Positions 26,225 through 55,882 of a stretch of DNA of 57,698 bases are shown here, piece after piece. The DNA is taken from positions 1 to 57,698 of the IMG/VR virus record IMGVR_UViG_3300020109_001608. One strand, given 5' to 3'. Positions within the stretch are counted from its first letter, which is position 1, and every line of letters begins with the position of its first letter. Under the pieces are notes generated by a model. That model saw only the letters and a program-made list of their open reading frames with translations, was not told the DNA's origin and ran no database searches. Both the position numbers and the translations under genes were made by a program. The stretch is from a virus (taxonomy: Duplodnaviria; Caudoviricetes).

Positions 26225-27361
26225 ATGGCTGCAACAACTAGAAAAGGTGTTTGGGACTTACAACAGGTTAGAGATCAGTATCTTGCTGGGGAATGGGAAC
26301 AACAGTTTCAATTATTTGCATGGGGGATTAATAATTTTGGTCAATTAGGGCAAAACAATATAACTTATTATTCGTCACCAATACAAATTCCAGGAACACA
26401 GTGGAGTTCAGTTTCTGGATCTTATGCTGCATCAGCATTTAAAACTGATGGAACATTATGGGTATGGGGACGAAATGATTATGGTGGATTAGGTCTAAAT
26501 GATACAGTAAGACGTTCATCACCTGTTCAAATTCCAGGAACACAGTGGAGTACTTCTAATGGTGGTGTTTACAATATGTACGCAACCAAAACTGATGGAA
26601 CACTGTGGGCATGGGGTTATAATGGACTTGGACAGTTAGGACAAAATAACAGAGTAGATTATTCATCACCAACACAAATTCCAGGAACACAGTGGAATAA
26701 AATACAAGTAGGGACTTATACTGATTATAGTGTTATTGCAACCAAAACTGATGGAACACTATGGATGTGGGGTGAGGGTGCTAGTGGGCGTTTAGGACAA
26801 AATGATGTAGCAAATCGTTCATCACCAGTACAAATTCCAGGAACACAATGGAATAATATTGGGAAGGGACAATCTTTTACGTTTGCAACCAAAACTGATG
26901 GAACCTTGTGGATATGGGGAAATAATATTGAAGGACAACTGGGACAAAATAATCGAGCGAATTATTCGTCACCACGACAAATTCCAGGCACACAGTGGAA
27001 TTTAGTAGATGGTGGAGGTCAACATTCATTAGCAACCAAAACTGATGGAACATTATGGGCATGGGGTTATAATCCTTATGGAGAACTGGGACAAAATACT
27101 GGTGCAAATCGTTCATCACCAGTACAAATTCCAGGGACACAGTGGGCACTTGATGCAAATTCTATTAATGGATTGTATGAGGGATGTGCTGCACGTAAAA
27201 CTGATGGAACATTATGGGCATGGGGAAGAAATATTTATGGAATGATGGGACAAAATAATACAACAGATCATTCATCACCAAGACAAATTCCAGGAACACA
27301 ATGGATTGCAGTAACTGGTAATACTTATGAAGTCATAGCAATCAAATCTCTTGTAAACTAA
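26225..27361 (+). CDS. RCC1/BLIP-II-like 7-bladed beta-propeller, short type 1
   Basis: Seven ~50 aa repeats ATKTDGTLWxWGxNxxGQLGQN..SSPxQIPGTQW; N-terminal GVWDL peptide. Confidence 0.88.
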   Translation: MAATTRKGVWDLQQVRDQYLAGEWEQQFQLFAWGINNFGQLGQNNITYYSSPIQIPGTQWSSVSGSYAASAFKTDGTLWVWGRNDYGGLGLNDTVRRSSPVQIPGTQWSTSNGGVYNMYATKTDGTLWAWGYNGLGQLGQNNRVDYSSPTQIPGTQWNKIQVGTYTDYSVIATKTDGTLWMWGEGASGRLGQNDVANRSSPVQIPGTQWNNIGKGQSFTFATKTDGTLWIWGNNIEGQLGQNNRANYSSPRQIPGTQWNLVDGGGQHSLATKTDGTLWAWGYNPYGELGQNTGANRSSPVQIPGTQWALDANSINGLYEGCAARKTDGTLWAWGRNIYGMMGQNNTTDHSSPRQIPGTQWIAVTGNTYEVIAIKSLVN

Positions 27362-27364
27362 ACT

Positions 27365-27372
27365 TATAAATA
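27365..27372 (+). promoter_or_regulatory. Late promoter TATAAATA (full T4 consensus)
   Basis: Exact TATAAATA upstream of 27394. Confidence 0.75.
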
Positions 27373-28116: not shown

Positions 28117-28120
28117 TGTT

Positions 28121-29254
28121 ATGATTACGTCAACGACGAGTGGTGTTTGGTTACTTGCGGATCAATATGCAAAGAATAATGCAGAAAGGTGGCGTCCTAG
28201 TGGATCTGCATTGTTTGCATGGGGATATAATGCCCAAGGACAACTAGGGCAAAATGATACAGTACCACGTTCATCACCAAGACAAATTCCAGGATCCGCA
28301 TGGAATGAAGTTAATGTGGGTCAATATAACATAATTGCTACTAAAACTGATAATACTTTATGGATTTCTGGTGATAATGCTTATGGGACTTTGGGATTAA
28401 ATGATATAGTACCACGTTCATCACCGGTGCAAGTCCCAGGAACCCAATGGAATAAAGTATCTTCGGGTGCTGTAATTACAGCAGCAACTAAAACTGATAA
28501 TACTTTATGGGTATGGGGAAATAATGATGTTGGACAACTGGGATTGAACAATACAGTACTTCGTTCATCACCTACACAAATTCCAGGAACACAATGGAAC
28601 CTGACTTGTGTTGGAGACCAATACATATATGCAATTAAAACCGATGGAACACTATGGGCATGGGGTAGAAATGGAAATGGTGCAATGGGGCAAAATGATA
28701 CATCCAATCGTTCCTCACCAGTACAAATTCCAGGAACACAATGGAATTCTTTAGCTGGTGGCGGAAGATATGCTGCCGGAGCATCAAAAACTGATGGAAC
28801 TTTATGGATGTGGGGATTTAATAATTATGGTTCCTTAGGACTGAACGACCGAGTAGCACGTTCATCACCAGTGCAAGTTCCGGGAACTCAATGGTCATTT
28901 AACTCCGTTTCTAGTATAGCATATTCTTATCAAACAGCATTAACAAAAACTGATGGAACATTATGGGTATGGGGACATAATGGTGAAGGTCAATTAGGAC
29001 AGAATGATCTAGTAACACGTTCATCACCAGTTCAAGTTCCAGGAACACAGTGGTCTAAATCTAGTTGTGGTGCAAGTATTACATTAGCAACCAAAACTGA
29101 TGGAACATTATGGGCATGGGCTGGATATGTCTATGGCGAAATCGCACAAAATAGTGTAGTAAGATATTCATCACCACAGCAAATTCCAGGAACACAGTGG
29201 ACTAGTTTCTCCGCAGGATATTATAGTGCAGCAGCAGTCAGACCTTCTTATTAA
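28121..29254 (+). CDS. RCC1/BLIP-II-like 7-bladed beta-propeller, short type 2
   Basis: Seven repeats; N-terminal SGVWLL..W.P. Confidence 0.88.
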   Translation: MITSTTSGVWLLADQYAKNNAERWRPSGSALFAWGYNAQGQLGQNDTVPRSSPRQIPGSAWNEVNVGQYNIIATKTDNTLWISGDNAYGTLGLNDIVPRSSPVQVPGTQWNKVSSGAVITAATKTDNTLWVWGNNDVGQLGLNNTVLRSSPTQIPGTQWNLTCVGDQYIYAIKTDGTLWAWGRNGNGAMGQNDTSNRSSPVQIPGTQWNSLAGGGRYAAGASKTDGTLWMWGFNNYGSLGLNDRVARSSPVQVPGTQWSFNSVSSIAYSYQTALTKTDGTLWVWGHNGEGQLGQNDLVTRSSPVQVPGTQWSKSSCGASITLATKTDGTLWAWAGYVYGEIAQNSVVRYSSPQQIPGTQWTSFSAGYYSAAAVRPSY

Positions 29255-29260: not shown

Positions 29261-29848
29261 ATGAACCCTTTTGAACTTCTTATTATTCAACCAAATATCG
29301 TTCCGCAAGAACACATTCAACAACTTCTTCAACTAACCAATCAATCAACATCAAATGCAACGATTGGTTCTGGTGAAGAAAAAGTAGAATTAGAAACCAG
29401 ACATACGTTATGGTATCCAATACCATATCCAATGTTGCAGAACTTAAATTCTGCGATTATGTCTTGTTATAAATCTTATATGGAACCAATTTATCATTCA
29501 ACGATTAAAAACATTGAACCTGCCCAATTTCTTGGCTATCCTATTGGTGGTCATTATATTGAGCATAATGATTGTGAAAATTTTGAAGGTGGGAAATGGG
29601 TCAAAATTGCACCCAGAGATATTTCAATTCTATTTTATTTGAATGATAACTATACTGGTGGGGAACTAGAATTTACACAACTTGGTTTGACTATTAAACC
29701 AAAAACAGGTATGATGATAGCATTTCCATCCTATAAAGAATTTGCCCATAAAGTTCATCCAGTCAAAACTGGTATGAGATATTCACTTGTAAGTTGGTTA
29801 GAGACAGAGAAAAAAGTTTATGAAACAGTACGAAGAAAAAGGTTTTGA
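29261..29848 (+). CDS. 2OG-Fe(II) oxygenase, prolyl-4-hydroxylase-like
   Basis: HND, LFYLNDNYTGGELEF, AFPS..HKVHPVKTGMRYSLVSW. Confidence 0.88.
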   Translation: MNPFELLIIQPNIVPQEHIQQLLQLTNQSTSNATIGSGEEKVELETRHTLWYPIPYPMLQNLNSAIMSCYKSYMEPIYHSTIKNIEPAQFLGYPIGGHYIEHNDCENFEGGKWVKIAPRDISILFYLNDNYTGGELEFTQLGLTIKPKTGMMIAFPSYKEFAHKVHPVKTGMRYSLVSWLETEKKVYETVRRKRF

Positions 29849-30401
29849 AGTTAAGCAAGGATTTATTCCCCCATTTTTTGCACAATATCTGAGAAACTAT
29901 TTTGATCTTCTGAGAAAGAACGATCAAATTCCAAACAAAGGTGATGATCAGGTAGAAAAATCACTTGGGATTTATGGAGACCCTGCATTTGATATGTTGA
30001 TGTTGATGTGTCTTCCAGCAGTAGAACAGGTAGTAGGAAAAAAACTTCTACCAACTTATACCTATGCACGGATTTATTTTAAGGGTGCAGGACTTCTTCC
30101 GCATTTAGATCGTGAAGAATGTGAGCATTCAGTATCCCTGTCTTTAGGTGGAGAATATAATGCGCTTTGGCCCTTATGGTTTAAGAATGAAGATGCCCAA
30201 CCAGAACATGCTGCGATGGGTGAAGGTGATGCTGTAATCTATAAAGGTAATAAAGTTCATCATTGGAGAGATGAATTTGAAGGAACCACACAGTTCCAAG
30301 TCTTTATGCACTATGTTGAAGCAGAAGGAGAATATAAAAACAAACTGTTTGATACAAGACCTTACATTGGACTACCTGCTGGTACTAAAACTGAGTATTG
30401 A
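29820..30401 (+). CDS. 2OG-Fe(II) oxygenase-like protein
   Basis: PTYTYARIY..L.PHLDREECEHSVSL, GDAVIYKG..HWR, QVFMHYV. Confidence 0.8.
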   Translation: MKQYEEKGFEVKQGFIPPFFAQYLRNYFDLLRKNDQIPNKGDDQVEKSLGIYGDPAFDMLMLMCLPAVEQVVGKKLLPTYTYARIYFKGAGLLPHLDREECEHSVSLSLGGEYNALWPLWFKNEDAQPEHAAMGEGDAVIYKGNKVHHWRDEFEGTTQFQVFMHYVEAEGEYKNKLFDTRPYIGLPAGTKTEY

Positions 30402-30403
30402 CT

Positions 30404-31693: not shown

Positions 31694-32288
31694 AACTTAT
31701 AGTTTATTTCCAACAAACATTGTAAGAACTGACTTCAAAGGTTTTATTACACCTGAGGATCATTTCACAATGATGCAAAGTGTAGACATGTTGATTGAGA
31801 ATGGTGTCTATACTGATAATGAACTTACGCCAAAGTATCAGACATCAGTAATCCTATTTCATGATGATGCACCACCAATCTGGCAGAAGTTAAAGAAAAC
31901 ATTCTATCAGGCATGTTCTAATTATCTTCAAGCAACACCTGGTTTTACTGGTAATCAAGATGCACTTGAATTCACTGGTTCTGGTGCATGGTGTTATAAA
32001 GGATGGAAGGGACTTAATCAAACACAAACGAACCCATGGCATCATCATAACCCATCATTTCTTTCAGGTGTCTATTATCTAAAAGTCCCTGGTGATTGGT
32101 CTACGGGTGGTACAGAATTTCATGATCCAAGAACTGCACCAGCACAAGCAACACAAAATCAATGCATAGCACCACAGGAATATACTTGGATTATCTTTCC
32201 TGGTTGGTTATCGCATAAAAGCAATTATGTAGATACTGAGGATCCACGTTATGTAATTGCAGCAAATATGTATGTAAAGGTACGATGA
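31683..32288 (+). CDS. 2OG-Fe(II) oxygenase (TIGR02466-like)
   Basis: LFPT, HHH..FLSGVYYL, F.DPR, IFPGWLSH, RYVIAAN. Confidence 0.82.
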   Translation: MNIETYSLFPTNIVRTDFKGFITPEDHFTMMQSVDMLIENGVYTDNELTPKYQTSVILFHDDAPPIWQKLKKTFYQACSNYLQATPGFTGNQDALEFTGSGAWCYKGWKGLNQTQTNPWHHHNPSFLSGVYYLKVPGDWSTGGTEFHDPRTAPAQATQNQCIAPQEYTWIIFPGWLSHKSNYVDTEDPRYVIAANMYVKVR

Positions 32289-32953: not shown

Positions 32954-33546
32954 CTTATACTTACCTAGATGCTTGTGTAGAAAATCCAAGAACAGTTGAT
33001 CTTGGAAATGATATGTATGCAATTGAATTCTGGAAACCAGAATTCTGCAAAGAACTGATTAACATCGCAGAAAGCATTGGTGGGTTTTCTAGTGTTCCTG
33101 GTGATCCTGTTTATGGTCAAGAACTACGTATTACACAAATCAGTGACTTGTTTTATAAGAACTATTGTGAACACTGGAAACGTGTAGTATCCCCATTTCT
33201 AGATGAAAAGTTTGGTCTTCCAAGTGAACAATGGTTTACTGGTTGGAAAGTTCCATTCATCATTAAGTATTCAATGGACAGTCAACGTTCATTAAGAATT
33301 CATGCTGATGATAGCTTGATTACTGGTACAATCAGATTGAATGATGAATACACTGGTGGTGAACTGATTTATCCACGTCAGAATTTTAGTAATAAAGATG
33401 TACCTGTGGGAACAATGATCATTGCCCCATCCATTGTGACGCATTTGCATTATAGTAGTGAACTTCAAAGTGGTATGAAGTATTCGTTTGTATCATGGAC
33501 AAAACTAAATAAGAAAGATAACGGGATTAACTTCGCAGAAGTCTAA
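32950..33546 (+). CDS. 2OG-Fe(II) oxygenase, lysyl hydroxylase (PLOD) catalytic-domain-like
   Basis: FIIKYSMDSQRSLRIHADDS..LNDEYTGG..P..THLH...G.KYSFVSW resembles the PLOD C-terminal pattern FVVRY..Q.SL.PHHDSS...THYH. Confidence 0.78.
   Translation: MTYTYLDACVENPRTVDLGNDMYAIEFWKPEFCKELINIAESIGGFSSVPGDPVYGQELRITQISDLFYKNYCEHWKRVVSPFLDEKFGLPSEQWFTGWKVPFIIKYSMDSQRSLRIHADDSLITGTIRLNDEYTGGELIYPRQNFSNKDVPVGTMIIAPSIVTHLHYSSELQSGMKYSFVSWTKLNKKDNGINFAEV
33506..33511 (+). promoter_or_regulatory. Late promoter TAAATA
   Basis: CTAAATA inside the end of the PLOD-like gene, about 35 nt before propeller gene 33546. Confidence 0.55.
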
Positions 33547-34661
33547 TGGGAATAAGACAAAACACTTGGAACCTAGGTGGACATTATGACTTAACCAATA
33601 GTGGGCAGAATGCTTATGTTGGAAGTATTTTATTATTTGCTTGGGGTGGTAATGGACTTGGGCAATTAGGACAAAATGCTAGAGCATATCGTTCATCACC
33701 AGTTCAAATTCCAGGAACACAATGGAATACAATTTCTGCGACTTATTATATGACACTAGCGACAAAAACCGATGGAACTTTATGGACATGGGGTAGAAAC
33801 CAATTTGGACAATTAGGACAAAATAATACAACATATCATTCATCACCAGTTCAAATTCCAGGAACACAATGGAGTTTGGCTACTGGAGGGGCTTTTCACA
33901 CAGTGGCGACTAAAACAGATGAAACTTTATGGGCATGGGGATACAATCAATATGGTAATTTAGCACAAAACAACAAAGTAAATTATTCATCACCAAGACA
34001 AATTCCAGGAACACAGTGGTCTCGCATTGCTAGTAGTAATTATCAATCGCTATTAGCAACCAAGACTGATGGAACGTTGTGGTCATGGGGATATAATTAT
34101 AATGGAGTGTTGGGACAAAATAATACGATAAATCGTTCGTCACCAGTACAAATTCCAGGAACACAATGGAATAAAGTTTCTGTTGGTAGATATCATATGC
34201 TAGCAACCAAAACTGATGGAACTTTATGGACATCGGGTCGTAATAATCGAGGACAATTAGGACAAAATGATAGAACATATCGTTCATCACCAATTCAAGT
34301 CCCAGGAACACAATGGAATTCGATTGCTAGTAGTAATTATCAGTCATTAACAACAAAAACTGATGGAACTTTATGGTCATGGGGATTTAATAGTAGTGGA
34401 CAATTGGGACAAAACAATCAAACATATTATTCATCACCAGTACAAATTCCAGGAACACAATGGAATAATATTCAAGCTTATTATCTAACTAACATTGCCA
34501 CAAAAACCGATAGTACGTTATGGGCATGGGGAGGTAACAGTTTTGGACAATTAGGACAAAATAATCTAACACAATATTCATCACCAGTACAAATTCCAGG
34601 GACATCATGGAATTCGATTGCTAGTGGTGCTTATCATTCATTAGCAATCCAACAACAATAA
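33546..34661 (+). CDS. RCC1/BLIP-II-like 7-bladed beta-propeller, short type 3
   Basis: Seven repeats; N-terminal NTWNL peptide. Confidence 0.88.
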   Translation: MGIRQNTWNLGGHYDLTNSGQNAYVGSILLFAWGGNGLGQLGQNARAYRSSPVQIPGTQWNTISATYYMTLATKTDGTLWTWGRNQFGQLGQNNTTYHSSPVQIPGTQWSLATGGAFHTVATKTDETLWAWGYNQYGNLAQNNKVNYSSPRQIPGTQWSRIASSNYQSLLATKTDGTLWSWGYNYNGVLGQNNTINRSSPVQIPGTQWNKVSVGRYHMLATKTDGTLWTSGRNNRGQLGQNDRTYRSSPIQVPGTQWNSIASSNYQSLTTKTDGTLWSWGFNSSGQLGQNNQTYYSSPVQIPGTQWNNIQAYYLTNIATKTDSTLWAWGGNSFGQLGQNNLTQYSSPVQIPGTSWNSIASGAYHSLAIQQQ

Positions 34662-44259: not shown

Positions 44260-45957
44260 ATGTCTGTAACTAAAGCTCAACTCTTATCCCCAGTAGGAAT
44301 TGTTACTGCATCAGGCGTAAATGTAAGCGGTACGATTACTGCTACTAGTTTTTCAGGTAGCGGTGCAAATTTAACTGGGGTTGGCGTTACAGCAGGGGCA
44401 AGTGTTAATACATCAGGTATTATTACAGCAGTTAGTTTTTCTGGTGATGGAAGTAATTTAAGTGGTATTGGTATTGGATCTACTGCAAATGTTGCTACAA
44501 CAGGAATTATCACAGCATCAAAGTTTTCTGGAAGTGGTATCGGATTAACAAACATTGGTGGACCTATCGCAGGATTGGTTTATAGTCCACCCATTGGTGC
44601 TACGGGTATTGGTTCATTATCCAATATTTCAATTACATTCAGTAAACCAATTCAAGCAGGTGTTGGTACAATTACTTTAAGAACTGATAGTGCGACTGGT
44701 TCAATTATTGAAAGTTTTGATGTTGGAACAAGTTCCTCTATTAGTATTAGTGGAGCAAAACTGATTATTGACCCAACAAGTAATCTAGGTGCAGGTACAA
44801 CGCATTATGTTGTAATTCCAGCAGGAGCACTGAAAGATACTTATGCTGGTATTTCAAGTAATGTAGGTATTACCAGTTATTATTTTAGAACACAACAAAT
44901 TGATTATTCTTTATTTGCATGGGGGTATAATGTTCTTGGGGCATTAGGACAAAATGATACTACAACTCGTTCATCACCAATACAAATTCCAGGAACACAG
45001 TGGAATAAAGTTACTGATGGGTACTCAAGTTTACTAGCAACTAAAACAGATGGAACGTTGTGGGCATGTGGATACAATAATTTCGGTGAACTAGGTCAGA
45101 ATGATCAAGTAAATTATTCATCACCAAGACAAATTCCAGGAACACAGTGGAGTTCTTTGGATGCAGATAATTATGTATTTTTAGCAACTAAAACAGATGG
45201 AACGTTGTGGGGATGTGGAAATAACGGTTATGCAGCATTAGGACAAAACAATCAAACATATTATTATTCATCACCAGTACAAATTCCAGGAACACAATGG
45301 AGATCTGTGCATGCTGGGGGTTTGCATACGCTAGCAACTAAAACTGATGGAACTTTATGGGCGTGGGGACATGCTCCCCAAGGACAACTAGGGCAAAATG
45401 ATACAGTACCACGTTCATCACCAAGACAAATTCCAGGAACACAATGGAATACAGCTTCCGTTGGATATTATAGTTCAATAGCGACAAAAACCGATGGAAC
45501 CTTGTGGGTTTGGGGCGATGCTTCTTATGGAGTTTTAGGACAAAATGATGTAGCAAATCGTTCATCACCAAGACAAATTCCAGGAACACAGTGGTCCGTA
45601 ATTCAATCTGTATATCATGCTCAAGGATCAATGTTCGCAACTAAAACAGATGGAACGTTGTGGGCATGGGGATATAATTATCGGGCAATTCTTGGACAAA
45701 ATGATATAACAGATCGTTCATCACCAAGACAAATTCCAGGAACACAGTGGAGATCTATAAGCAGCAGATATCGACATGTTGTAGCAACAAAAACTGATGG
45801 AACATTATGGTCATGGGGATCTAATGCTTTCGGTAAATTAGGATTGAATAATACAACATATTGCTCATCGCCGGTACAAATTCCAGGAACCACATGGAGT
45901 TCTATGGTTACAGCTGGTACTTTCAATTCATTCGCTATTAAAGAAACATCATCATAA
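44260..45957 (+). CDS. Fibre + Ig-like (Big_5/SbsA-like) + RCC1 propeller protein, type A1
   Basis: MSVTKAQL start; GIITA..FSG.G..L repeats; YSP..ITFSKPI..GTITLR..IDPT Ig-like domain; 7 blades. Confidence 0.85.
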   Translation: MSVTKAQLLSPVGIVTASGVNVSGTITATSFSGSGANLTGVGVTAGASVNTSGIITAVSFSGDGSNLSGIGIGSTANVATTGIITASKFSGSGIGLTNIGGPIAGLVYSPPIGATGIGSLSNISITFSKPIQAGVGTITLRTDSATGSIIESFDVGTSSSISISGAKLIIDPTSNLGAGTTHYVVIPAGALKDTYAGISSNVGITSYYFRTQQIDYSLFAWGYNVLGALGQNDTTTRSSPIQIPGTQWNKVTDGYSSLLATKTDGTLWACGYNNFGELGQNDQVNYSSPRQIPGTQWSSLDADNYVFLATKTDGTLWGCGNNGYAALGQNNQTYYYSSPVQIPGTQWRSVHAGGLHTLATKTDGTLWAWGHAPQGQLGQNDTVPRSSPRQIPGTQWNTASVGYYSSIATKTDGTLWVWGDASYGVLGQNDVANRSSPRQIPGTQWSVIQSVYHAQGSMFATKTDGTLWAWGYNYRAILGQNDITDRSSPRQIPGTQWRSISSRYRHVVATKTDGTLWSWGSNAFGKLGLNNTTYCSSPVQIPGTTWSSMVTAGTFNSFAIKETSS

Positions 45958-45977
45958 ATACCTAAAAAACGATAATG
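45954..45977 (+). repeat. Repeated gene-junction cassette: stop + late promoter + leader (ATAAATACCTAAAAAAC..ATG)
   Basis: Near-identical copies with TAAATA at 45955, 48141, 50303, 52021, 53706 and 55885. Confidence 0.85.
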
Positions 45978-48143
45978 GCGTTAAACTTTCCTGATAGTCC
46001 TTCACTAAATGACTTATACACTGACCCAACAACAGGGTTTACATATCAGTGGAATGGTGAAGTATGGAAAAGTGCAGTATTATCAAATCCGGATTCAATC
46101 AAAGAACTTACAGATATTTCATCATCATTTAATGGTATAACAACATCATTTTCACTAGCAATATCAGGCAATTCAGTTACACCAACCAATGCACAACAAC
46201 TAATTATTAATCTTGGTGGTGTAATTCAAAATGCAGGAAATGATTATACAGTTTCTGGTAGCACACTTTACTTCACAACACCACCATCATCAGGGCTTAC
46301 ATTCACTGGAATATTTGTTGGATCTGCATTAGCATTAAACACAGTATCATCTTATGCAGTAGAACCACAAGACTTAACAACAGGTGGTCCTTCATGGAAT
46401 ACTTCTGGTGATGTAAGAATTTCTGGTGTCGGTACAGTTTCTAATACTGGATCAGCAACCACAGCACTGTATGTTGCTGGTGGTGCTAGAATTACTGGTA
46501 TTCTAACTGTTGGTTCATCAAGCGTCACAATCAATGGTGTTACTGATAGAATTAGTGTAGGAACTGGATTAACAATCAGTTCATCAGGTATCACTGCTGG
46601 TGTAATTACTGCGACAACATTCTATGGTGATGGTAGCAATCTAACAGGTGTTGGTGTTGGATCCACAGCAAACATCAATACAACTGGTATTATTACTGCA
46701 TCATACTTCTATGGATCTGGTATTGGAATTACAAATGCAGGTCCATTAGGTAGAATTACACCAATTTCTTATTCACCTGCGATTGGTGCGACAAATCAAA
46801 GTCCTGATGTAAGTGTTGTAATTACTTTCAATAAACCACTGGTGGCTGCTGCCGGAACAATTACCATTAGAAGTGGAAGTGCATCAGGATCAATTGTTGA
46901 AAGTTTTGATGTTCAGACAAGCCCACTTTTAAGTATCAGTGGTGGTGTTCTTACAATTAATCCAACGGACTCAACAATTGGTACTGGAACAACTTATTTC
47001 GTTGTTGTACCTGAAAATGCATATAAAGATATTTTAGGTTCTTCTGGTAACGTAGGAATTACAACTTATAGTTTTACAACTGCAACACAATTCTTGCAGT
47101 TGTTTTCAACAGGTCAAAATCACACTGGACAATTGGGTCAAAATGATAGAACATATCGTTCATCACCAATACAAATTCCAGGTATTCAATGGTCTCGTAT
47201 TTCTAGTGGTGCGGATTTTGGTTTTGGAATAAAAACAGATGGAACCTTATGGGCATGGGGCAATAATCAATCTTCTAGATTAGGACAAAATAGTACTACA
47301 CAATATTCATCGCCAAGACAAATTCCTGGGACACAATGGAGTGAAGTTGGTGGCGCTTATAATATTGGAATAGCTAAAAAAACAGATAATACTTTATGGG
47401 TTTGGGGACAGAATAATAGAGGAAACTTAGGTCAAAATGATATAACTTATTATTCATCACCAAGACAAATTCCAGGAACACAGTGGAATACGTTTTCTTC
47501 ATGCTATTTTACAATTTTTGCAACTAAAACAGATGGAACTTTATGGTCATGGGGAAGTAATCAGTACGGAGAATTAGGTATCAATCTTAGTGGTCAATAT
47601 CGTTCATCACCAACACAAATTCCAGGAACACAATGGGGATCTTTGGGTGGGGGAGGATATCATATGTCGGCAACAAAAACTGACGGAACTTTATGGGCAT
47701 GGGGTTATAATGGAAATGGAAATTTAGGTCTCAACGATACCGCAAATCGTTTATCACCTGTTCAAGTTCCAGGAACACAATGGAACAATACTGTATCTGT
47801 AAATTATGTGGGAATGTTCACTAGAAGTAATGGGACATTGTGGTCTTGTGGTTATAATAACTTTGGTGCATTAGGACAAAATGATAGAACACAATACTCA
47901 TCACCAAGACAAATTCCAGGAACACAGTGGGATATATCATTAGTTGATGGTTCTTCAAGTGCATTCCATACAATAGCGAAAAAAACAGACGGAACATTAT
48001 GGATGTGGGGTCAAGGTTCTACTGGACAATTAATACAAAACAGTCCAATAGATCTTTCATCGCCAGTTCAAGTTCCAGGAACACAGTGGACACGCGCAGC
48101 CACAGGGTATAGACATTCCTTCGTAATGAAATCAGTAACATAA
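45975..48143 (+). CDS. Fibre + Ig-like + RCC1 propeller protein, type B1
   Basis: MALNFPDSPSLN..YQWNG.VW start; DISSSFNG domain; fibre repeats; Ig-like domain; 7 blades. Confidence 0.85.
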   Translation: MALNFPDSPSLNDLYTDPTTGFTYQWNGEVWKSAVLSNPDSIKELTDISSSFNGITTSFSLAISGNSVTPTNAQQLIINLGGVIQNAGNDYTVSGSTLYFTTPPSSGLTFTGIFVGSALALNTVSSYAVEPQDLTTGGPSWNTSGDVRISGVGTVSNTGSATTALYVAGGARITGILTVGSSSVTINGVTDRISVGTGLTISSSGITAGVITATTFYGDGSNLTGVGVGSTANINTTGIITASYFYGSGIGITNAGPLGRITPISYSPAIGATNQSPDVSVVITFNKPLVAAAGTITIRSGSASGSIVESFDVQTSPLLSISGGVLTINPTDSTIGTGTTYFVVVPENAYKDILGSSGNVGITTYSFTTATQFLQLFSTGQNHTGQLGQNDRTYRSSPIQIPGIQWSRISSGADFGFGIKTDGTLWAWGNNQSSRLGQNSTTQYSSPRQIPGTQWSEVGGAYNIGIAKKTDNTLWVWGQNNRGNLGQNDITYYSSPRQIPGTQWNTFSSCYFTIFATKTDGTLWSWGSNQYGELGINLSGQYRSSPTQIPGTQWGSLGGGGYHMSATKTDGTLWAWGYNGNGNLGLNDTANRLSPVQVPGTQWNNTVSVNYVGMFTRSNGTLWSCGYNNFGALGQNDRTQYSSPRQIPGTQWDISLVDGSSSAFHTIAKKTDGTLWMWGQGSTGQLIQNSPIDLSSPVQVPGTQWTRAATGYRHSFVMKSVT

Positions 48144-48160
48144 ATACCTAAAAAACGATA

Positions 48161-50305
48161 ATGGCGATAAATTTTCCTGATAGTCCATCGTTAAATCAAA
48201 TTTTCAATGATACAACATCTGGTTTTAGTTTCCAGTGGAATGGTGAAGTATGGAAAAGTTATGTAGATCCAACGATTGGTAATACAACCAAACTAGATGA
48301 TATCAGTGCTTCATTTAATGGAAGCACACAAACCTTTGCACTTACAGTTAATGGAACTGCTGCAACTGCTGATTTAGATCCAGCAAAAATTCTACTTAGC
48401 TTAGGTGGTGTAGCACAAAACCCAGTAGAAGACTATACAATCAGTGGTACAAACATTACATTTACCACTGCACCTGCGAATGGTCTTACATTTTTCGCAG
48501 TTATTTTAGAAACAGGTATATCAAAAGACTATATTTCTTCTGGTATCATTGGTCCAACAGGTCTTTCAACTGGTGGATTTTCTTGGAACACTGGTGGTGA
48601 TTTATACATCAGTGGTGTTGCGACAGTTGCAAATACAGGTACAGCAACAACAGCATTATATGTTTCAGGAAATGCTAGAATTGCTGGTATTCTGACTGTT
48701 GGTTCTTCAAGTATTACGTTTGATGGTACAAATAATAGAATTACTGGAACAGGTATTACAATTAGCAGTGGTGGTATTGTAGCAAGCGCAATCACTGCGA
48801 CCAGTTATTCTGGTGATGGTGCAAATCTTACTGGTGCAGGATTAGGTCCAACAAGTAACATCAACACCACAGGTATCATCACTGCATCTAAATTCTCTGG
48901 TGATGCAACATACTTAACTGATATTGGTGGTGTAATTCAAGGTATTGTTTATAATCCTACTGTTGGTGCAACTGGTATTGCAGCCACAACAAACATTGAT
49001 ATTACATTTAACAAACCAATCAAAGCAGGTATTGGAACGATTACATTAAGAACTGATAGTGCATCAGGATCAATTGTTGAAAGTTATGATATTACTTCAA
49101 GTAATCGTCTTACAATCAGCGGTGCGAAGTTAACAATTGACCCCACTAGCAATTTAGGTGCAGGTACAACGCACTTTGTTGTAGTTCCTGCTGGTACAGT
49201 CAAAGACTTGTTTAATACTGGTAGCAATGCTGTAATTGATACTTATAGTTTCACGACACAATCTTTTACCCTGTTTAGTTTTGGAAGAAATCCCAATGGA
49301 CAATTAGGACAAAATGATACAGTAAGACGTTCATCACCAACACAAATTCCAGGAACACAATGGAGTTATATAAACTCTGCAAACTATCATTCATTAGCAA
49401 CAAAAACTGATGGAACTTTGTGGGCATGGGGATCTAATGCTTTCGGTAAATTAGGATTGAATAATACAACATATTGCTCATCGCCGGTACAAATTCCAGG
49501 AACATCATGGAGATTTATTTCTTCTGATTATAACACCACAATAGCAACTAAAACCGATGGAACTTTATGGGCATGGGGAAATAATGGTGCCGGAGAATTG
49601 GGACAATCTAATACATACAATCGTTCATCACCAATTCAAATTCCAGGAACACAGTGGGGAAATATATCTGCAACTGCAAGTGATACATTTGCAACTAAAA
49701 CCGATGGAACATTATGGTCATGGGGATATAATAGTTATGGTCAGTTGGGACAAAATGATAGAGTAAATCGTTCATCACCAATACAAATTCCAGGAACACA
49801 GTGGAATAATATACAAACAGGATTCTATTCTACATTTGCAACTAAAACCGATGGAACTTTATGGGCATGGGGATATAATCATAGAGGACAACTGGGACAA
49901 AATAATACAACATATCGTTCATCACCAGTACAAATTCCAGGAACATCGTGGAATTCTATAGGTGGTTTTCTTCAACATTTTTTAGCAACAAAAACCGATG
50001 GAACATTATGGTCATGGGGATATAATAATGCCGGAAGATTGGGACAAAATGATACAGCATTTCGTTCATCACCAGTTCAAGTTCCAGGCACACAATGGAG
50101 TTCTATAAGTGCTGGTGGTCAACATTCACTAGCTACTAAAACTGATGGAACTTTATGGGCATGGGGTAGAAATTATTTTGGAGAACTTGGAGCAAATACC
50201 TCTGGTTCAGCAGCATATCGTTCATCACCAATACAAATTCCAGGAACATCTTGGAGTTCTGTTTCTGCTGGTTATCAAAGTTCATCAGCAATCAAATCAC
50301 AATAA
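48161..50305 (+). CDS. Fibre + Ig-like + RCC1 propeller protein, type B2
   Basis: Paralogue of 45975..48143; 7 blades. Confidence 0.85.
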   Translation: MAINFPDSPSLNQIFNDTTSGFSFQWNGEVWKSYVDPTIGNTTKLDDISASFNGSTQTFALTVNGTAATADLDPAKILLSLGGVAQNPVEDYTISGTNITFTTAPANGLTFFAVILETGISKDYISSGIIGPTGLSTGGFSWNTGGDLYISGVATVANTGTATTALYVSGNARIAGILTVGSSSITFDGTNNRITGTGITISSGGIVASAITATSYSGDGANLTGAGLGPTSNINTTGIITASKFSGDATYLTDIGGVIQGIVYNPTVGATGIAATTNIDITFNKPIKAGIGTITLRTDSASGSIVESYDITSSNRLTISGAKLTIDPTSNLGAGTTHFVVVPAGTVKDLFNTGSNAVIDTYSFTTQSFTLFSFGRNPNGQLGQNDTVRRSSPTQIPGTQWSYINSANYHSLATKTDGTLWAWGSNAFGKLGLNNTTYCSSPVQIPGTSWRFISSDYNTTIATKTDGTLWAWGNNGAGELGQSNTYNRSSPIQIPGTQWGNISATASDTFATKTDGTLWSWGYNSYGQLGQNDRVNRSSPIQIPGTQWNNIQTGFYSTFATKTDGTLWAWGYNHRGQLGQNNTTYRSSPVQIPGTSWNSIGGFLQHFLATKTDGTLWSWGYNNAGRLGQNDTAFRSSPVQVPGTQWSSISAGGQHSLATKTDGTLWAWGRNYFGELGANTSGSAAYRSSPIQIPGTSWSSVSAGYQSSSAIKSQ

Positions 50306-50319
50306 ATACCTAAAAAACC

Positions 50320-52023
50320 ATGAGCCAGTCTAATGCACAACTTGTAGCACCAGTTGGAATATTCACTGCATCAGGTATCAATGCATCTGGTGTTGTAACT
50401 GCTACTAGTTTTTCTGGTGATGGTTCACAATTACAAGGTGTTGGTGTAGGAACCACAGGAAGTATCAATTCATCTGGTATTGTTACTGCATCTGCTTTTT
50501 ATGGTAATGGTGCTAATCTAACTGGTATTACACTGATTGGCCCAACAGATAATTATACAACAACAGGTATCATCACTGCTGGTTCTTTTTATGGTGATGG
50601 TATTGGTATCACAAATATTGGTGGTCCTTTAAGTCCAATCATTTATTCACCTGGTATTGGTGTAACAAACATAAGTAATGATACGAATATTGTTATCACA
50701 TTCAACAAACCAATCGCAGCGGCAGCAGCAACAACAGGTATTTCAACAATTACTTTAAGAAGCGGTAGTGCATCAGGAACGATTGTTGAAAGTTATGATA
50801 TTGCGAATGTTGCTGCTGGATCTAGCGTAAGTATTAGTGGTGCTGTTCTTACAATTAATCCAACGGACTCAGTAATCAGTGCTGGAACAACTTTTTATGT
50901 TGTTATACCTGCTGGAACATTACAAGACACAATTGATACAAGCGATAATACTGGAATTACAACTTATAGTTTTACAACTGCGGCACAGTATTTGCAGTTG
51001 TTTGGGTGGGGAAATAATCAATATGCTGAATTGGGTCTTAATGATGTAATATTACGTTCATCACCAACACAAATTCCAGGAACACAGTGGAATTCTGTAA
51101 ATGGTGGTAATGAACATTCATTAGCAACAAAAACTGATGGAACCTTATGGTCATGGGGTTATAACCGTGGAACTTTAGGTATAAATGACGTTATACCACG
51201 TTCATCACCGGTACAAGTTCCAGGCACACAATGGAGTTCTATAAGTGCTGGTAGTCATTTATTTGCAACTAAAACTGATGGAACACTGTGGACATGGGGT
51301 GGTAATTTACTTGGACAGTTAGGACAAAATAACAGAGTAGATTATTCATCACCAACACAAATTCCAGGAACACAATGGAATTTTATAAATGCTGCACTTG
51401 GTATTTCACTAGCAACAAAAACTGATGGAACTTTATGGGTATGGGGAGGAAATGGAAATGGACAATTAGGATTAAATAATAGAATAGGTCGCTCATCACC
51501 AACACAAATTCCAGGAACCCAATGGAATAAAATTGCTGGTTCTAATACACTTGCAGTAGCAACCAAAACTGATGGAACACTATGGGCATGGGGTCGCAAT
51601 TATCAGGGACAATTAGGACAAAATAATACAACATATCGTTCATCACCAACACAAATTCCAGGAACATCATGGAATTCTGTAAGTGCTGATAGTGTTACTA
51701 CATTAGCAACCAAAACTGATGGAACTTTATGGTCATGGGGTTATAATTATCTGGGAAATCTAGGACAAAATAATACAGTACAATATTCATCACCAAGACA
51801 AATTCCAGGAACACAATGGAATGCTATTAATTATGAAAACGGGATTAGTTTTGCAACAAAAACTGATGGAACTATGTGGGCTTGGGGTCGAAATACTTAT
51901 GGACAATTGGGATTAAATAATACAATAGGTCGCTCATCACCAACACAAGTTCCAGGGACACAGTGGACATCTTCAATTTCTTCGGGCAATCATTCCTCAT
52001 TTGCTATCAAAACAGTAACATAA
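50320..52023 (+). CDS. Fibre + Ig-like + RCC1 propeller protein, type A2
   Basis: MSQSNAQL start, paralogue of 44260..45957; 7 blades. Confidence 0.85.
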   Translation: MSQSNAQLVAPVGIFTASGINASGVVTATSFSGDGSQLQGVGVGTTGSINSSGIVTASAFYGNGANLTGITLIGPTDNYTTTGIITAGSFYGDGIGITNIGGPLSPIIYSPGIGVTNISNDTNIVITFNKPIAAAAATTGISTITLRSGSASGTIVESYDIANVAAGSSVSISGAVLTINPTDSVISAGTTFYVVIPAGTLQDTIDTSDNTGITTYSFTTAAQYLQLFGWGNNQYAELGLNDVILRSSPTQIPGTQWNSVNGGNEHSLATKTDGTLWSWGYNRGTLGINDVIPRSSPVQVPGTQWSSISAGSHLFATKTDGTLWTWGGNLLGQLGQNNRVDYSSPTQIPGTQWNFINAALGISLATKTDGTLWVWGGNGNGQLGLNNRIGRSSPTQIPGTQWNKIAGSNTLAVATKTDGTLWAWGRNYQGQLGQNNTTYRSSPTQIPGTSWNSVSADSVTTLATKTDGTLWSWGYNYLGNLGQNNTVQYSSPRQIPGTQWNAINYENGISFATKTDGTMWAWGRNTYGQLGLNNTIGRSSPTQVPGTQWTSSISSGNHSSFAIKTVT

Positions 52024-52037
52024 ATACCTAAAAAACA

Positions 52038-53708
52038 ATGAGCCAGTCCAAAGCACAACTTACTAATCCATTAGGTCCTGTAAATTTAAGTGGTTTAAGT
52101 GCGACTGGGGTTGTAACTGCTACAACTTTCATTGGTAATGGTTCTGGTTTAACTGGAATTGCACTTACAGGAAACATCAATACAACAGGCATCATTACTG
52201 CATCTGCATTTTATGGTAGCGGTGCAAATTTAAGTGGAGCAGGATTAGGACCAACAAGTAATATCAATACATCAGGTATCATCACAGCAGGAAAGTTTTA
52301 TGGTGATGGAAGTTTATTAACAGATATTGGTGGAGCATTTACACCATTAACTTATAGTCCTGGTATTGGTCAAACAAATGTAGGTGTATCATCAAACATC
52401 ACCATTACATTTAATAAACCAATTAAAGTTGGAACTGGTACAATTACTTTAAGAACTGGAAGTGCATCAGGAACGATTGTTGAAAGTTTTGATGTTACTT
52501 CTAGTAGTAGACTTTCAATAAATGCAGGTGTTTTAACGATTAGTCCAACAAATTCACTTGCAGGGTTAACTACACATTATGTTGTGTTACCAGCAGGAAC
52601 AATTAAAGATACTTATAATATTGATAGTAATACTTTAATTGATACTTATAGTTTTACCACACAGATATCTAATGTTCTCTTTGTTTGGGGGAATAATCTT
52701 TATGGAGACCTTGGACAAAATAATACAACACAATATTCATCTCCCGTTCAAATACCAGGAACGCAATGGAGTTCATTTTCTGCCCGCCATGTTACATTAG
52801 CAACAAAAACTGATGGAACCTTATGGTCATGGGGATATGGACAACAAGGTCAATTAGGACAAAATAATCTAACACAATATTCATCACCAGTACAAATTCC
52901 AGGAACACAATGGAATAAAATTAATGCAGAAGGTTATATAAATTCACTAGCAACAAAAACTGACGGAACTTTGTGGGCATGGGGATATAATATTGAAGGA
53001 CAACTGGGACAAAATAATCGAGCGAATTATTCGTCACCACGACAAATTCCAGGCACACAGTGGAGTTCCATAAGTTGCGGTGGTCATACATTAGCGACCA
53101 AAACTGATGGAACCTTATGGTCATGGGGTTATAATTATGCCGGAAGATTGGGACAAAATGATACAGTAAGACGTTCATCACCAACACAAATTCCAGGCAC
53201 ACAATGGAGTTCTATAAGTGCTGGTGGTCAACATTCACTAGCTACTAAAACTGATGGAACTTTATGGGCATGGGGAAGTAATCATTTAGGTTACTTGGGA
53301 CAAAATAATACAACATATTATTCATCACCAAGACAAATTCCAGGAACGCAGTGGAGTTCGGTTTCTGCTACTTATGGTGGAGGAAATCAGTCTGTTGCAA
53401 CAAAAACTGATGGAACATTGTGGGCATGGGGTTACAATGGATATGGAACATTGGGACAAAATGATACTACAACTCGTTCATCACCAATACAAATTCCAGG
53501 AACACAATGGAATCTAATAGAAGGAGGTAATAACTTACTTCTCGCAACCAAAACTGATGGAACACTATGGATATGGGGATATGGACGTGAAGGAGCATTA
53601 GGACAAAATACTACAATAAACCTTTCATCACCAACACAAGTTCCAGGAACACAATGGAATTTCGTGAATGCTGGTGGTACCTACATTTCAGGTGGAATCA
53701 GATCATAA
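52038..53708 (+). CDS. Fibre + Ig-like + RCC1 propeller protein, type A3
   Basis: MSQSKAQL start; 7 blades. Confidence 0.85.
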   Translation: MSQSKAQLTNPLGPVNLSGLSATGVVTATTFIGNGSGLTGIALTGNINTTGIITASAFYGSGANLSGAGLGPTSNINTSGIITAGKFYGDGSLLTDIGGAFTPLTYSPGIGQTNVGVSSNITITFNKPIKVGTGTITLRTGSASGTIVESFDVTSSSRLSINAGVLTISPTNSLAGLTTHYVVLPAGTIKDTYNIDSNTLIDTYSFTTQISNVLFVWGNNLYGDLGQNNTTQYSSPVQIPGTQWSSFSARHVTLATKTDGTLWSWGYGQQGQLGQNNLTQYSSPVQIPGTQWNKINAEGYINSLATKTDGTLWAWGYNIEGQLGQNNRANYSSPRQIPGTQWSSISCGGHTLATKTDGTLWSWGYNYAGRLGQNDTVRRSSPTQIPGTQWSSISAGGQHSLATKTDGTLWAWGSNHLGYLGQNNTTYYSSPRQIPGTQWSSVSATYGGGNQSVATKTDGTLWAWGYNGYGTLGQNDTTTRSSPIQIPGTQWNLIEGGNNLLLATKTDGTLWIWGYGREGALGQNTTINLSSPTQVPGTQWNFVNAGGTYISGGIRS

Positions 53709-53725
53709 ATATCTAAAAAACGATA

Positions 53726-55882
53726 ATGGCGATAAATTTTCCTGATAGTCCATCGTTAAATCAAATTTTCACAGATGCTACATCTGGTTTTACCTATCAG
53801 TGGAACGGAACTGTTTGGATCAACTATAACTATACTGCACCAGCAAAGATCTTAGAACTTGATGATATCAAAAGTTCTTTCAATGGTTCAACACAAACCT
53901 TTGCGCTTACAGTATCAGGTTCTGCTGCTACACCAGTCAAAGCAGATCAGTTAATTATCAACATTGGTGGTATTACACAAAATCCAGGAACTGACTTTAC
54001 TGTATCAGGAAGTAATATTACATTCACAACAGCACCAACAACAGGTCTTGACTTTTATGGTGTTCTGTTAGGTGGTTCAACAAGCTTATCAGCAGTATCA
54101 TCAAATACAGTAAGACCGGATTCATTTACAACTGGTGGACCAACATGGAATTCATCAGGTGATCTAAAAGTATCTGGTGTTACAACGATTGCAAACACTG
54201 GATCTGCAAGTACAGCACTGTATGTTTCAGGAAATGCTAGGATCACTGGAATTGTAACAGTTGGATCATCAAGTATTACGATTGATGGTGCAAATAATTC
54301 AATTCAAGTTGGAACTGGTGCAACATTAAATGCATCAGGTATTACTGTTGGTATCATTACTGGTACATTCTATGGTAGTGGTGCAGGACTTGCGAATGTT
54401 GGTCTCGGAACACAAGGAAGTTTGAATACAACAGGTGTCATTACTGCGACAAGTTTCTATGGTGATGGTTCTGGTCTTACAAATCTTGGTGGTCCTTTAC
54501 AACCACTGACGTATTCACCTAGTATTGGGCAAACAAATATTTCTGATGTACCAACAATCGTTGTTACATTCAACAAACCACTGAAAATTAATACAGGATC
54601 AATTACAATCAGAAGTGGAAGTGCATCAGGTACAATCATTGAAAGTTTTGATGTAACATCCAGTTCTGCATTAAGTATTAATGGTGGTGCTTTGACGATC
54701 ACACCAACAGTTGCTTTAGGTGCTGGTACAACACATTTTGTTGTATTCCCTGCGGCAGCATATAAAGATACTTTTGAAAGTTCTTCAAGTGTTGGTATTA
54801 CAACTTATAGCTTTGTAACTGCGACACAGTATTTGCAGTTGTTTGCATGGGGTTCTAATTCTAACGGAACATTAGGACAAAATAATATAACAAATCGTTC
54901 GTCACCAATACAAATTCCAGGTGTTCAGTGGGCACAAATTGATAGTTACTACCACACAGCAGCAACAAAAACTGATGGTACATTGTGGGTATGGGGATCT
55001 AATGGTAACGGTAAATTAGGATTGAATGATAGTGGAACAATAACTGCACGTTCATCACCAGTACAAATTCCAGGAACATCATGGAATTCTATTAGTCTTG
55101 GATATGCTCATTCATTAGCAACAAAAACTGATGGAACTTTATGGGCATGGGGATATAACGGATTGGGGGGATTAGGGTTAAATGATGTAGCCAATCGTTC
55201 ATCACCAAGACAAATTCCAGGAACACAATGGGAAAATTTGGCTGGTGGCTTATATGAGACCCTTGCAACCAAAACTGATGGAACTTTATGGTCATGGGGT
55301 TATAATGCCCAAGGACAATTGGGACTTAATATTAATAACAATTATTTTTCATCACCAGTTCAAGTTCCAGGAACACAATGGAGTAGACCATATAGTGGAT
55401 ATACGTTTAGTGGAGCACTAAAAACTGATGGAACTTTATGGACATGGGGAAGAAATCAAAGGGGAAATCTAGGACAAAATAATACAGTACAATATTCATC
55501 ACCAAGACAAATACCAGGAACACAATGGAGTGCAGCTTCATTCGGTTATTATCATATTTTAGCAACAAAAACTGATAATACTTTATGGGCATGGGGCAGT
55601 GAAGGAGATGGTTCTATCGGACAAAATGATAATGTGGTTTATTCATCACCAAGACAAATCCCAGGAACCCAATGGTCATTGACCCAAAATCGTGGTGGTG
55701 GATATTTTAGTTTAGCACTTAAAACTGATGGAACTTTATGGGCAGTGGGTGGAAGAAATGGAAGTGGTCATTTAGGTCAAAACGACGATATACGTCGTTC
55801 ATCACCAACACAAATTCCAGGAACACAGTGGTCTTCATCATCACAAGCATATGCAATTGGATATGCAATCAAATCAGTATAA
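53726..55882 (+). CDS. Fibre + Ig-like + RCC1 propeller protein, type B3
   Basis: MAINFPDSPSLNQIF start; 7 blades. Confidence 0.85.
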   Translation: MAINFPDSPSLNQIFTDATSGFTYQWNGTVWINYNYTAPAKILELDDIKSSFNGSTQTFALTVSGSAATPVKADQLIINIGGITQNPGTDFTVSGSNITFTTAPTTGLDFYGVLLGGSTSLSAVSSNTVRPDSFTTGGPTWNSSGDLKVSGVTTIANTGSASTALYVSGNARITGIVTVGSSSITIDGANNSIQVGTGATLNASGITVGIITGTFYGSGAGLANVGLGTQGSLNTTGVITATSFYGDGSGLTNLGGPLQPLTYSPSIGQTNISDVPTIVVTFNKPLKINTGSITIRSGSASGTIIESFDVTSSSALSINGGALTITPTVALGAGTTHFVVFPAAAYKDTFESSSSVGITTYSFVTATQYLQLFAWGSNSNGTLGQNNITNRSSPIQIPGVQWAQIDSYYHTAATKTDGTLWVWGSNGNGKLGLNDSGTITARSSPVQIPGTSWNSISLGYAHSLATKTDGTLWAWGYNGLGGLGLNDVANRSSPRQIPGTQWENLAGGLYETLATKTDGTLWSWGYNAQGQLGLNINNNYFSSPVQVPGTQWSRPYSGYTFSGALKTDGTLWTWGRNQRGNLGQNNTVQYSSPRQIPGTQWSAASFGYYHILATKTDNTLWAWGSEGDGSIGQNDNVVYSSPRQIPGTQWSLTQNRGGGYFSLALKTDGTLWAVGGRNGSGHLGQNDDIRRSSPTQIPGTQWSSSSQAYAIGYAIKSV

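Follow-up and report, generated by a model that had tools for sequence, protein, structure and literature searches.

Mosaic blades in nine paralogous RCC1-like propeller genes of a freshwater cyanophage: probable short-tract gene conversion

The virus contig IMGVR_UViG_3300020109_001608 (Caudoviricetes), a stretch of 57,698 nucleotides (nt) that we call the window and on which all coordinates are based, belongs to a freshwater T4-like cyanophage, a myovirus of the Kyanoviridae kind, and carries nine genes, g1 to g9, coding for RCC1-like beta-propellers. Each of these nine open reading frames (ORFs), all on the + strand, contains seven copies of the anchor motif [QK][IV]PG..W spaced 48-53 amino acids (aa), or 144-159 nt, apart, which gives 63 repeat units or blades. 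The genes lie in two clusters, g1-g3 at 26.2-34.7 kilobases (kb) and g4-g9 at 44.3-55.9 kb, and fall into three size classes of ~375 aa (g1-g3), ~560 aa (g4, g7 and g8) and ~715 aa (g5, g6 and g9); the six long genes g4-g9 additionally encode a Big_5 Ig-like domain (Pfam). A first-pass annotation of this DNA had already recognised nine genes of seven units each, as we confirm, and had read them as a dedicated diversification system in which constant DNA blocks anchor the shuffling of variable loops. Exchange between blades is real and shapes the repertoire; it is the fast or dedicated character of the process that our analysis did not bear out.

All nine proteins contain 6-7 stretches matching RCC1 (PF00415) in Pfam, together with WD40_RLD matches at E-values of 8e-57 to 8e-83 and RLD (PF25390) scores of 194-279 bits, the cutoff being 150. 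For g3, an AlphaFold2 model computed from an alignment of 16 propellers reached a predicted local distance difference test score (pLDDT) of 90.3 and has 28 strands arranged as 7 x 4, so that both features of a RCC1-like seven-bladed propeller, seven repeats of ~50 aa and four strands per blade, are present. The best Protein Data Bank (PDB) matches of this model in Foldseek are UVR8, the RLDs of HERC1/2 and RCC1 itself (template modelling (TM) scores of 0.83-0.88, E 1e-27 to 1e-32), while BLIP-II is farther away (TMq 0.61). Within a modelled blade the strand LWxWG leads into a long connection holding loop 2, the GQLGQN motif and loop 3, followed by the strand RSSPxQI, the PGTQ turn, a further strand, the tip of loop 1, the strand xxLATK and finally the TDGT turn. 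The variable residues were placed on the model by this strand order and not by coordinates. In a beta-meander, one connection emerges on one face of a propeller and the next on the opposite face. Every second connection in the blade holds variable sequence, first loops 2 and 3 and then the tip of loop 1, and these patches should therefore lie on one side, with the conserved turns on the opposite one; the model accordingly predicts that the variable loops are displayed on a single face of the propeller.

The near-invariant DNA blocks described by the first-pass annotation are readily recovered. Allowing up to 3 mismatches, CAAATTCCAGGAACACARTGG is found 61 times with 0.01 matches expected and GCAACNAAAACTGATGGAACNTTRTGG 49 times with 0 expected; TCATCACCANNNCAAATTCCAGG, with at most 2 mismatches, occurs 60 times, again with 0 expected. 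Every one of these matches is on the + strand and within the nine full-length ORFs, all of which have start codons. The codons of the blocks are fixed to a degree that codon bias alone does not explain, and they stand far above background in relatives of the phage as well. Thus, the two Ser residues of the Ser-Ser pair are encoded by TCA in 56/62 and 58/63 cases against a background share of 0.28, the block Arg by CGT in 34/36 (background 0.20), the block Thr by ACA in 53/60 (0.43), and the Gly of KTDG by GGA in 46/48 (0.46). In the N-terminal parts of the same genes GGA accounts for only 0.28 of the Gly codons and GGT is favoured.

The conservation at synonymous sites is strong in these named blocks only. 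Other framework codons vary freely: the Thr at column 0 is ACT in 25, ACA in 18, ACC in 7 and ACG in 5 blades, and the Gln at column 35 is CAA in 32 and CAG in 23. Over all framework codons the proportion of synonymous differences (pS) is 0.42, compared with 0.45-0.62 in the N-terminal domains of the paralogues. The synonymous divergence (dS) of the paralogous N-terminal domains amounts to 0.68-1.29. To judge from this value and from a gene order shared with three relatives (the metagenome contig L033, the 70.9-kb viral contig L115 and the isolate S-SRM01), the genes themselves must be old.

As to the variable patches, their composition had been described as rich in Tyr, Asn, Ser, Gly, Arg and His. 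This is correct for Tyr (enriched 2.4-fold in variable columns), Arg (2.0-fold), Asn and Ser (both 1.6-fold) and His (1.4-fold) but not for Gly, which at 0.77-fold is not enriched. The loops show a nonsynonymous divergence (dN) of 1.15 and a dS of 0.80, both near saturation, while the framework has a dN of 0.10 and a dS of 0.61.

Blades follow neither gene nor position descent. Framework pS is 0.416 between blades at the same position, 0.408 within the same gene and 0.421 for all other pairs, and the proportion of nonsynonymous differences (pN) in the loops is equally flat (0.589, 0.579 and 0.588, respectively). The nearest neighbour of a blade occupies the same position in 9/63 cases (8.1 expected by chance) and the same gene in 12/63 (6.1 expected). 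Blade trees that track gene or position, which the first-pass annotation had named as evidence against exchange, are not what we find. The incongruence between segments that it predicted is indeed present: distances computed separately for the three loops are uncorrelated (Mantel r 0.02, 0.10 and -0.04; p 0.38, 0.07 and 0.69), meaning that each loop of a blade has a history of its own. Eight blade pairs are identical across the 39-nt loop-3 region and yet differ by 0.36-0.67 in loop 1, against an overall mean of 0.61 for that loop.

The most direct evidence for a transfer of DNA between blades that differ in gene and position comes from exact tracts of 85, 79, 78, 66, 62, 53, 53, 51 and 47 nt shared by nine blade pairs, all nine of which join different genes and eight of which join different blade positions. 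In the alignments, identity is 100% over one or two loops and drops abruptly to background in the adjoining loop. The shared loops are accompanied by rare synonymous framework variants (TCG, CCG and GGC), an association that excludes convergence. A good example is the 79-nt tract shared by g4 and g6, which holds loops 2 and 3 together with the rare TCG and CCG codons, next to a loop 1 that is unrelated in the two blades. When the order of the 124 polymorphic sites was shuffled in 300 permutations, a mean of 1.52 and a maximum of 5 blade pairs exceeded a weighted-run score of 8.96; 20 pairs do so in the actual data. Blade 4 of g8 shares its loop 3 with blade 1 of g6 and its loop 1 with blade 6 of g6 and is therefore itself a mosaic. 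Recent tracts are few, nine among 1953 blade pairs. They are shorter than a blade, their edges lie at or beside constant blocks, and all nine include or abut the SSPxQIPGTQW block. The location of the edges is uninformative, however, because any shared identity extends until a variable site interrupts it and a blade consists largely of the blocks. That the constant blocks are the sites where exchange starts and ends, the anchor role proposed for them, may nevertheless be envisaged.

As a side observation, four of the seven g8 blades contain a segment that recurs unchanged in blades of g1, g3, g4 or g6. The involvement of g8 in five of the nine tracts has a p of ~0.02 before correction for the post hoc choice of this gene and is treated as an observation only; g8 may be a recent patchwork recipient.

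Table 1. Positions of the nine propeller genes, of the gene that follows them and of exact tracts shared between blades
Feature	Position	Strand	Identical copy	Remarks
g1, propeller-only RCC1 protein	26225..27361	+		378 aa, 7 blades (Pfam and anchors); orthologues in conserved synteny in S-SRM01 and L115
g2, propeller-only RCC1 protein	28121..29254	+		377 aa, 7 blades (Pfam and anchors); synteny with S-SRM01 and L115
g3, propeller-only RCC1 protein	33546..34661	+		371 aa, 7 blades; protein used for the AlphaFold2 model
g4, short fibre-type protein	44260..45957	+		565 aa; repeats, then Big_5 Ig-like domain, then 7-blade propeller
g5, long fibre-type protein	45975..48143	+		722 aa; tail-fibre-like N-terminal domain, then Big_5, then propeller
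g6, long fibre-type protein	48161..50305	+		714 aa; orthologue is h6 in L033
g7, short fibre-type protein	50320..52023	+		567 aa, 7 blades
g8, short fibre-type protein	52038..53708	+		556 aa; partner in 5/9 longest shared tracts
g9, long fibre-type protein	53726..55882	+		718 aa, 7 blades
Tail-fibre-assembly-like protein	55905..56240	+		111 aa; directly 3' of g9; phrog_3304, E 1e-22
85-nt exact tract, g6 blades 6-7	50082..50166	+	53191-53275, g8 blades 4-5	carries loop 1
79-nt exact tract, g4 blade 7	45812..45890	+	49425-49503, g6 blade 2	
78-nt exact tract, g1 blade 5	26922..26999	+	52987-53064, g8 blade 3	
66-nt exact tract, g1 blade 3	26626..26691	+	51309-51374, g7 blade 3	
62-nt exact tract, g2 blade 1	28233..28294	+	45377-45438, g4 blade 4	
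47-nt exact tract, g6 blade 1	49307..49353	+	53151-53197, g8 blade 4	

The relatives provide a second line of evidence. L115 encodes a neighbouring protein 70% identical to that of the window, and its orthologues of g1-g3 have near-identical N- and C-terminal peptides. The framework between these ends has changed throughout the genome: 21/28 L115 blades read PG-TT-W (ACC or ACT, then ACA) where 53/63 window blades read PG-TQ-W (ACA, then CAA/CAG). The nearest neighbour of an L115 blade is in its own genome in 19/21 cases, although only 27/90 candidates are its own; 3/21 match their orthologous slot best. Loop 1 begins with SSIS in 11/28 L115 blades, which indicates that the same exchange process also homogenises. 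A similar picture emerges from S-SRM01, an isolate of a freshwater Synechococcus phage (Kyanoviridae, NC_070963) that shares with the window the gene order long-tail-fibre distal subunit, RCC1, hypothetical protein, RCC1, tetratricopeptide repeat (TPR) protein and 2-oxoglutarate (2OG) oxygenase and, farther along, RCC1 and sulfotransferase. Its syntenic RCC1 genes are equally regular and resemble g1-g3 in having variable patches at the same three places, but their constant block is a different one, TPVTTFAGGTNWKQV, fixed in rare codons of its own: the block Val is GTC in 16/16 cases (background 0.09), Thr is ACC in 12/15 (0.11) and Asn is AAC in 15/18 (0.23). Concerted evolution by gene conversion classically leaves just such a trace, a framework state that is specific to a genome and yet recurs in numerous blades across several of its old genes. 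L115 blades are closer to those of their own genome than to their orthologues, S-SRM01 has a block of its own, and no such effect is seen on the branch between the window and L033, whose gene order is collinear with g5-g9. All genes parsed in the relatives also have seven blades which, like the seven blades in 9/9 window genes, argues against changes in repeat number by unequal crossing-over.

How fast the repertoire changes can be gauged from several sources. L033 and L034 represent the same relative from two samples and differ at 102 sites over 8.7 kb. As many as 92 of these sites are located within 600 nt of one long-fibre N-terminal domain (L033 1675-2278), a cluster that looks like a localised recombinational replacement in the part expected to attach to the virion, and only three lie in the four propellers with their 28 blades. 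These three are point changes in h6, for which a search elsewhere in both contigs revealed no donor. The window phage itself occurs in 24 public lake runs. Four public runs were examined in the form of k=31 contigs; these are interrupted within the propellers and are unable to show tract junctions or rare chimeras. Three lake runs of 2018 contain the unique parts of the locus with 0 differences. The 2024 run contains a strain that is 1.4-4.5% different and in which blades 1-3 and 5-7 of g5 are collinear with the window, differ by 1.5-3.5% and have their loops in place. Over the region 43400-56000, runs X1, X9 and X24 yielded contigs with the same blocks and other loops at a depth of 120-360, compared with ~20-30 for unique parts of the window; one carrying a YNGHGE-type loop, absent from the window, has a depth of 150 against about 30. 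These deeper contigs with the same framework point to more abundant relatives co-occurring in the same lakes. Apparent blade joints in the run contigs turned out to be blades from outside 43400-56000, one with the loop of g1 blade 2, or to stem from the abundant relatives. Positions 52241-52661 are without cover in run X24, from which we draw no inference.

Altogether there is no sign of fast or programmed variation, and the reshuffling is a pattern seen over evolutionary time. Nor did we encounter dedicated machinery. The 39 window proteins compared with Pfam include no recombinase and, as the first-pass annotation had assumed, no reverse transcriptase; a few further ORFs were compared with PHROG only, and the scans covered ORFs of at least 100 aa. 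Silent or truncated donor cassettes were likewise not found, all block matches in the window being located in the nine full-length ORFs.

The gene context suggests what these proteins might do. Baseplate, tail lysozyme and tail fibre proteins are encoded in the first 25 kb of the window, upstream of the nine genes (PHROG matches), and the ORF at 78-797 is a T4 baseplate protein (Pfam PF12322, E 1.6e-77). The long genes begin with a domain for which tail fibre and virion proteins from cyanophages and pelagiphages were retrieved (tblastn, PHROG); in g5, residues 42-139 give PHROG matches to tail fibre and virion structural proteins, and a comparison of this domain with PDB sequences produced no match at E up to 1. 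We infer from these matches and from the neighbouring genes that the nine propeller proteins are paralogous fibre or adhesin proteins which are probably located on the virion and have a binding role.

A number of further features of the locus deserve mention. The six long genes all have a tandem short motif, GIITAxxFxGDGSxLTG, preceding the Ig-like domain (44260-44900 and the matching parts of g5-g9), and g7 has a weak Pfam match to a Chlorovirus glycoprotein repeat. An exact repeat of 59 nt (48148-48206 and 53713-53771) spans the ribosome-binding region of g6 and g9 together with their first 15 codons, while outside it the N-terminal domains of these two genes are at a dS of ~1.15. A degenerate pattern for the g6/g9 start matched no viral contig, and a megablast of g4-g5 against the phage collection gave nothing beyond matches of 56-78 nt. 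Between the RCC1 genes lies an island of modification genes (29261-44198) which includes at least five 2OG-Fe(II) oxygenases, a TPR protein, a sulfotransferase, a family 25 glycosyltransferase, a methyltransferase, a cytidylyltransferase, a PfkB kinase and a cupin, as well as an epimerase on the minus strand. The interleaving of island and RCC1 genes is also kept in S-SRM01, which raises the question whether the substrates of the island enzymes are the propeller proteins or a glycan ligand. Finally, L115 8732-10663 is a homologue of the window ORF 25307-26212 with a full seven-blade propeller inserted before the conserved C-terminal domain, suggesting that the propeller module has moved into another structural gene, too.

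Starting from the observed architecture, mosaic tracts, independent loop histories and genome-specific framework variants of the relatives, we favour short-tract gene conversion among paralogous propeller adhesins, that is, concerted evolution in which the loops are kept diverse, with a probability of roughly 0.6. The ordinary homologous recombination of the phage would copy stretches of ~40-90 nt from blade to blade, within and between the nine genes. Conversion of this kind would keep the framework DNA nearly identical and would occasionally bring a loop cassette into a new blade, in most cases loop 3 together with the SSPxQIPGTQW block. Selection for diverse binding surfaces would presumably keep the loops on the one face different, and the outcome would be a mosaic repertoire reshuffled over evolutionary time and not per infection.

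Several of our own data weigh against this explanation. The mosaic tracts rest on one assembly: L033, L001, L002, L115 and S-SRM01 contain no internal exact repeats beyond 37-50 nt (in S-SRM01 the longest shared tract is <=46 nt among the three genes in the stretch compared), and tracts bearing loops are seen in the window only. The loop dN/dS above 1 is weak evidence for diversifying selection because of the near saturation of both values. The block codons TCA TCA CCA x CAA ATT CCA GGA ACA are identical in the window, L033, L001 and L002, despite a dS of 0.5-0.8 or more in the N-terminal domains across these lineages. The synonymous difference of the framework is 0.308 within the window, 0.289 within L033 and 0.308 between the two, and as the values within genomes are not below that between them, there is no measurable genome-specific homogenisation on this branch. 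Under neutral concerted evolution the consensus should be free to drift, which leaves room for some selection or bias on the block DNA itself or for gene flow between lineages; both appear possible. The unexplained identity of the block codons also leaves room for the anchor idea.

According to this latter idea the blocks are maintained at the DNA level as homology anchors through which cassettes smaller than a blade are reassorted among the 63 or more slots and with co-occurring relatives, providing an adhesin library that requires neither reverse transcriptase nor recombinase and changes fast enough to follow the host receptor. The recurrence of the same block codons in different lineages would fit well: in L001 the two Ser residues are encoded by TCA in 20/22 and 19/22 blades (background 0.33), L002 and L033 being alike, and all 12 strongly fixed block codons are the same in the window as in L033 at an N-terminal dS of ~0.65. 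The same can be said of the association of all recent tracts with the SSPxQIPGTQW block and of the more abundant relatives which, in the same samples, combine the same blocks with other loops. Yet in L115 and S-SRM01 the nucleotides of the blocks have changed genome-wide, which implies that no fixed sequence is required, and the speed demanded of such a library is difficult to reconcile with the three differences in the 28 nearly identical blades of L033 and L034, with the g5 blades still in place in the 2024 relative, or with nine recent tracts in the window and none in five relatives. An enzyme devoted to the task is missing from the window proteins scanned. Ambiguous in this respect is the comparison of loops in orthologous slots of the window and L033, which are as unlike as those of random blades (identity 0.222 versus 0.20, p 0.06; the orthologue is the best match in 2/35 cases). 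Turnover by exchange would produce this result, but an identity of 0.22 at a dS of 0.65 is also about what is expected from unconstrained point mutation, so that the figure fits both. On balance we consider a dedicated system of this type unlikely.

Still less probable is a history without any exchange, in which one blade or gene was recently amplified, the loops diverged by positive selection or local hypermutation, and the codons were held by constraints on translation or the mRNA. Strong purifying selection on the framework (dN 0.10), a loop composition biased like that of binding sites and the recurrence of identical block codons in several lineages could all be accommodated in this way. 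A recent amplification is contradicted by the divergence of the old paralogous N-terminal domains, and also by the g5-g9 order and the g1-g3 set, which predate the splits from L033, L115 and S-SRM01. Constraint on codons would have to explain why the blocks use GGA next to N-terminal parts that prefer GGT, and why the framework variants are genome-specific. Tracts that are 100% identical, contain rare codons and have unrelated flanks require transfer. One might then ask whether the shared tracts, though not the architecture, are artefacts of assembly or polishing in a repeat-rich region, especially since tracts >50 nt occur in this one assembly only and the k=31 run contigs neither confirm nor deny the junctions. 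We think this very improbable. The nine ORFs are intact with exactly 7 blades each, the unique parts were reproduced without a difference in three runs, and the same architecture is found in the isolate genome S-SRM01 and in four independent contigs. Moreover, the tracts are shorter than a normal read, and a misjoin would rearrange genes and not copy a tract of 50-85 nt into a second intact blade. Gene conversion by short tracts remains the explanation that we prefer.

The closest known mechanism is that of the NWD family of Podospora anserina (including het-d and het-e), whose WD40 repeats are reported to undergo concerted evolution within and between about ten paralogues while a few surface positions on the interaction face diversify (Paoletti, Saupe & Clave 2007, PMC1805685). 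The NWD/HNWD genes and the genes studied here have in common a beta-propeller repertoire of about ten paralogues with repeat units exchanged within and between members. They differ in that the fungal propellers are WD40 domains of NOD-like receptors (NLRs) and those of the window RCC1 domains of a phage fibre, and in that whole repeats move and vary in number in Podospora, in contrast to the fixed seven in 9/9 genes and the sub-blade tracts of 47-85 nt described here. Hypermutation by repeat-induced point mutation (RIP), as in Podospora, has no counterpart in the window phage.

Among phages, the closest case is the T-even adhesin gp38, described as made up of glycine-rich motifs with hypervariable segments between them (Trojet et al. 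2011, PMC3157838, citing Tetart 1996 and 1998). This is also a host-recognition protein in which strictly conserved motifs alternate with hypervariable segments, but the likeness is one of design only: the propellers of the window belong by fold and Pfam family to RCC1 and have no homology to gp38. Furthermore, gp38 is, in that description, encoded by one gene per phage and exchanged between phages, as opposed to nine paralogues with 63 slots and exchange between paralogues. Arrays of RCC1-like paralogues in myoviruses have been reported for Rak2-like jumbo phages, with eleven such genes in phAPEC6 (PMC7247149) and multiple copies in 121Q and PBECO4; at least one of these proteins, that of GAP32, is virion-associated (PMC5259590). 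These phages have enterobacterial hosts, and the passages concerned suggest a role in DNA condensation and contain no analysis of blades; the two groups are set side by side by description only. The main text of the S-SRM01 genome paper makes no mention of RCC1, chromosome condensation or a propeller (PMC8557907), and a full-text literature search returned no paper on blade exchange in phage RCC1 proteins; the 26 occurrences of 'RCC1' in a paper on an Ostreococcus virus are culture-collection strain numbers and irrelevant.

Diversity-generating retroelements and cassette-based antigenic variation (pilE/pilS, vlsE, VSG) also vary a binding surface in a targeted manner while the scaffold stays constant. 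The window differs from the former by the lack, among what was found there, of a reverse transcriptase and a template repeat. The likeness to the latter and to the assembly of lamprey variable lymphocyte receptors (VLRs), drawn by the first-pass annotation, is valid as a concept and does not extend to the gene organisation, which consists of nine full-length genes with neither silent nor truncated donors. Unlike the tail fibre switches that operate by inversion or as shufflons (Gin, Cin, Rci), the locus shows no recombinase domain, and its block copies are all direct repeats.

These findings suggest a third route to variation of phage adhesins, beside retroelements and invertible segments, in which paralogous propellers would be reshuffled by homologous recombination with the homology supplied by the repeat framework. 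If the anchor reading were true, the locus would be a phage counterpart of the repeat shuffling of fungal NLRs or of lamprey VLR assembly. Host recognition by cyanophages shapes picocyanobacterial populations in lakes and the way in which it changes is poorly understood. With 24 public lake runs available, the locus offers a natural test bed for the question whether synonymous sites can be conserved because they serve recombination. More generally, a likely role can be proposed for the multi-copy genes annotated as 'regulator of chromosome condensation' in cyanophages and jumbo phages, whose products may well be receptor-binding modules and not chromatin proteins.

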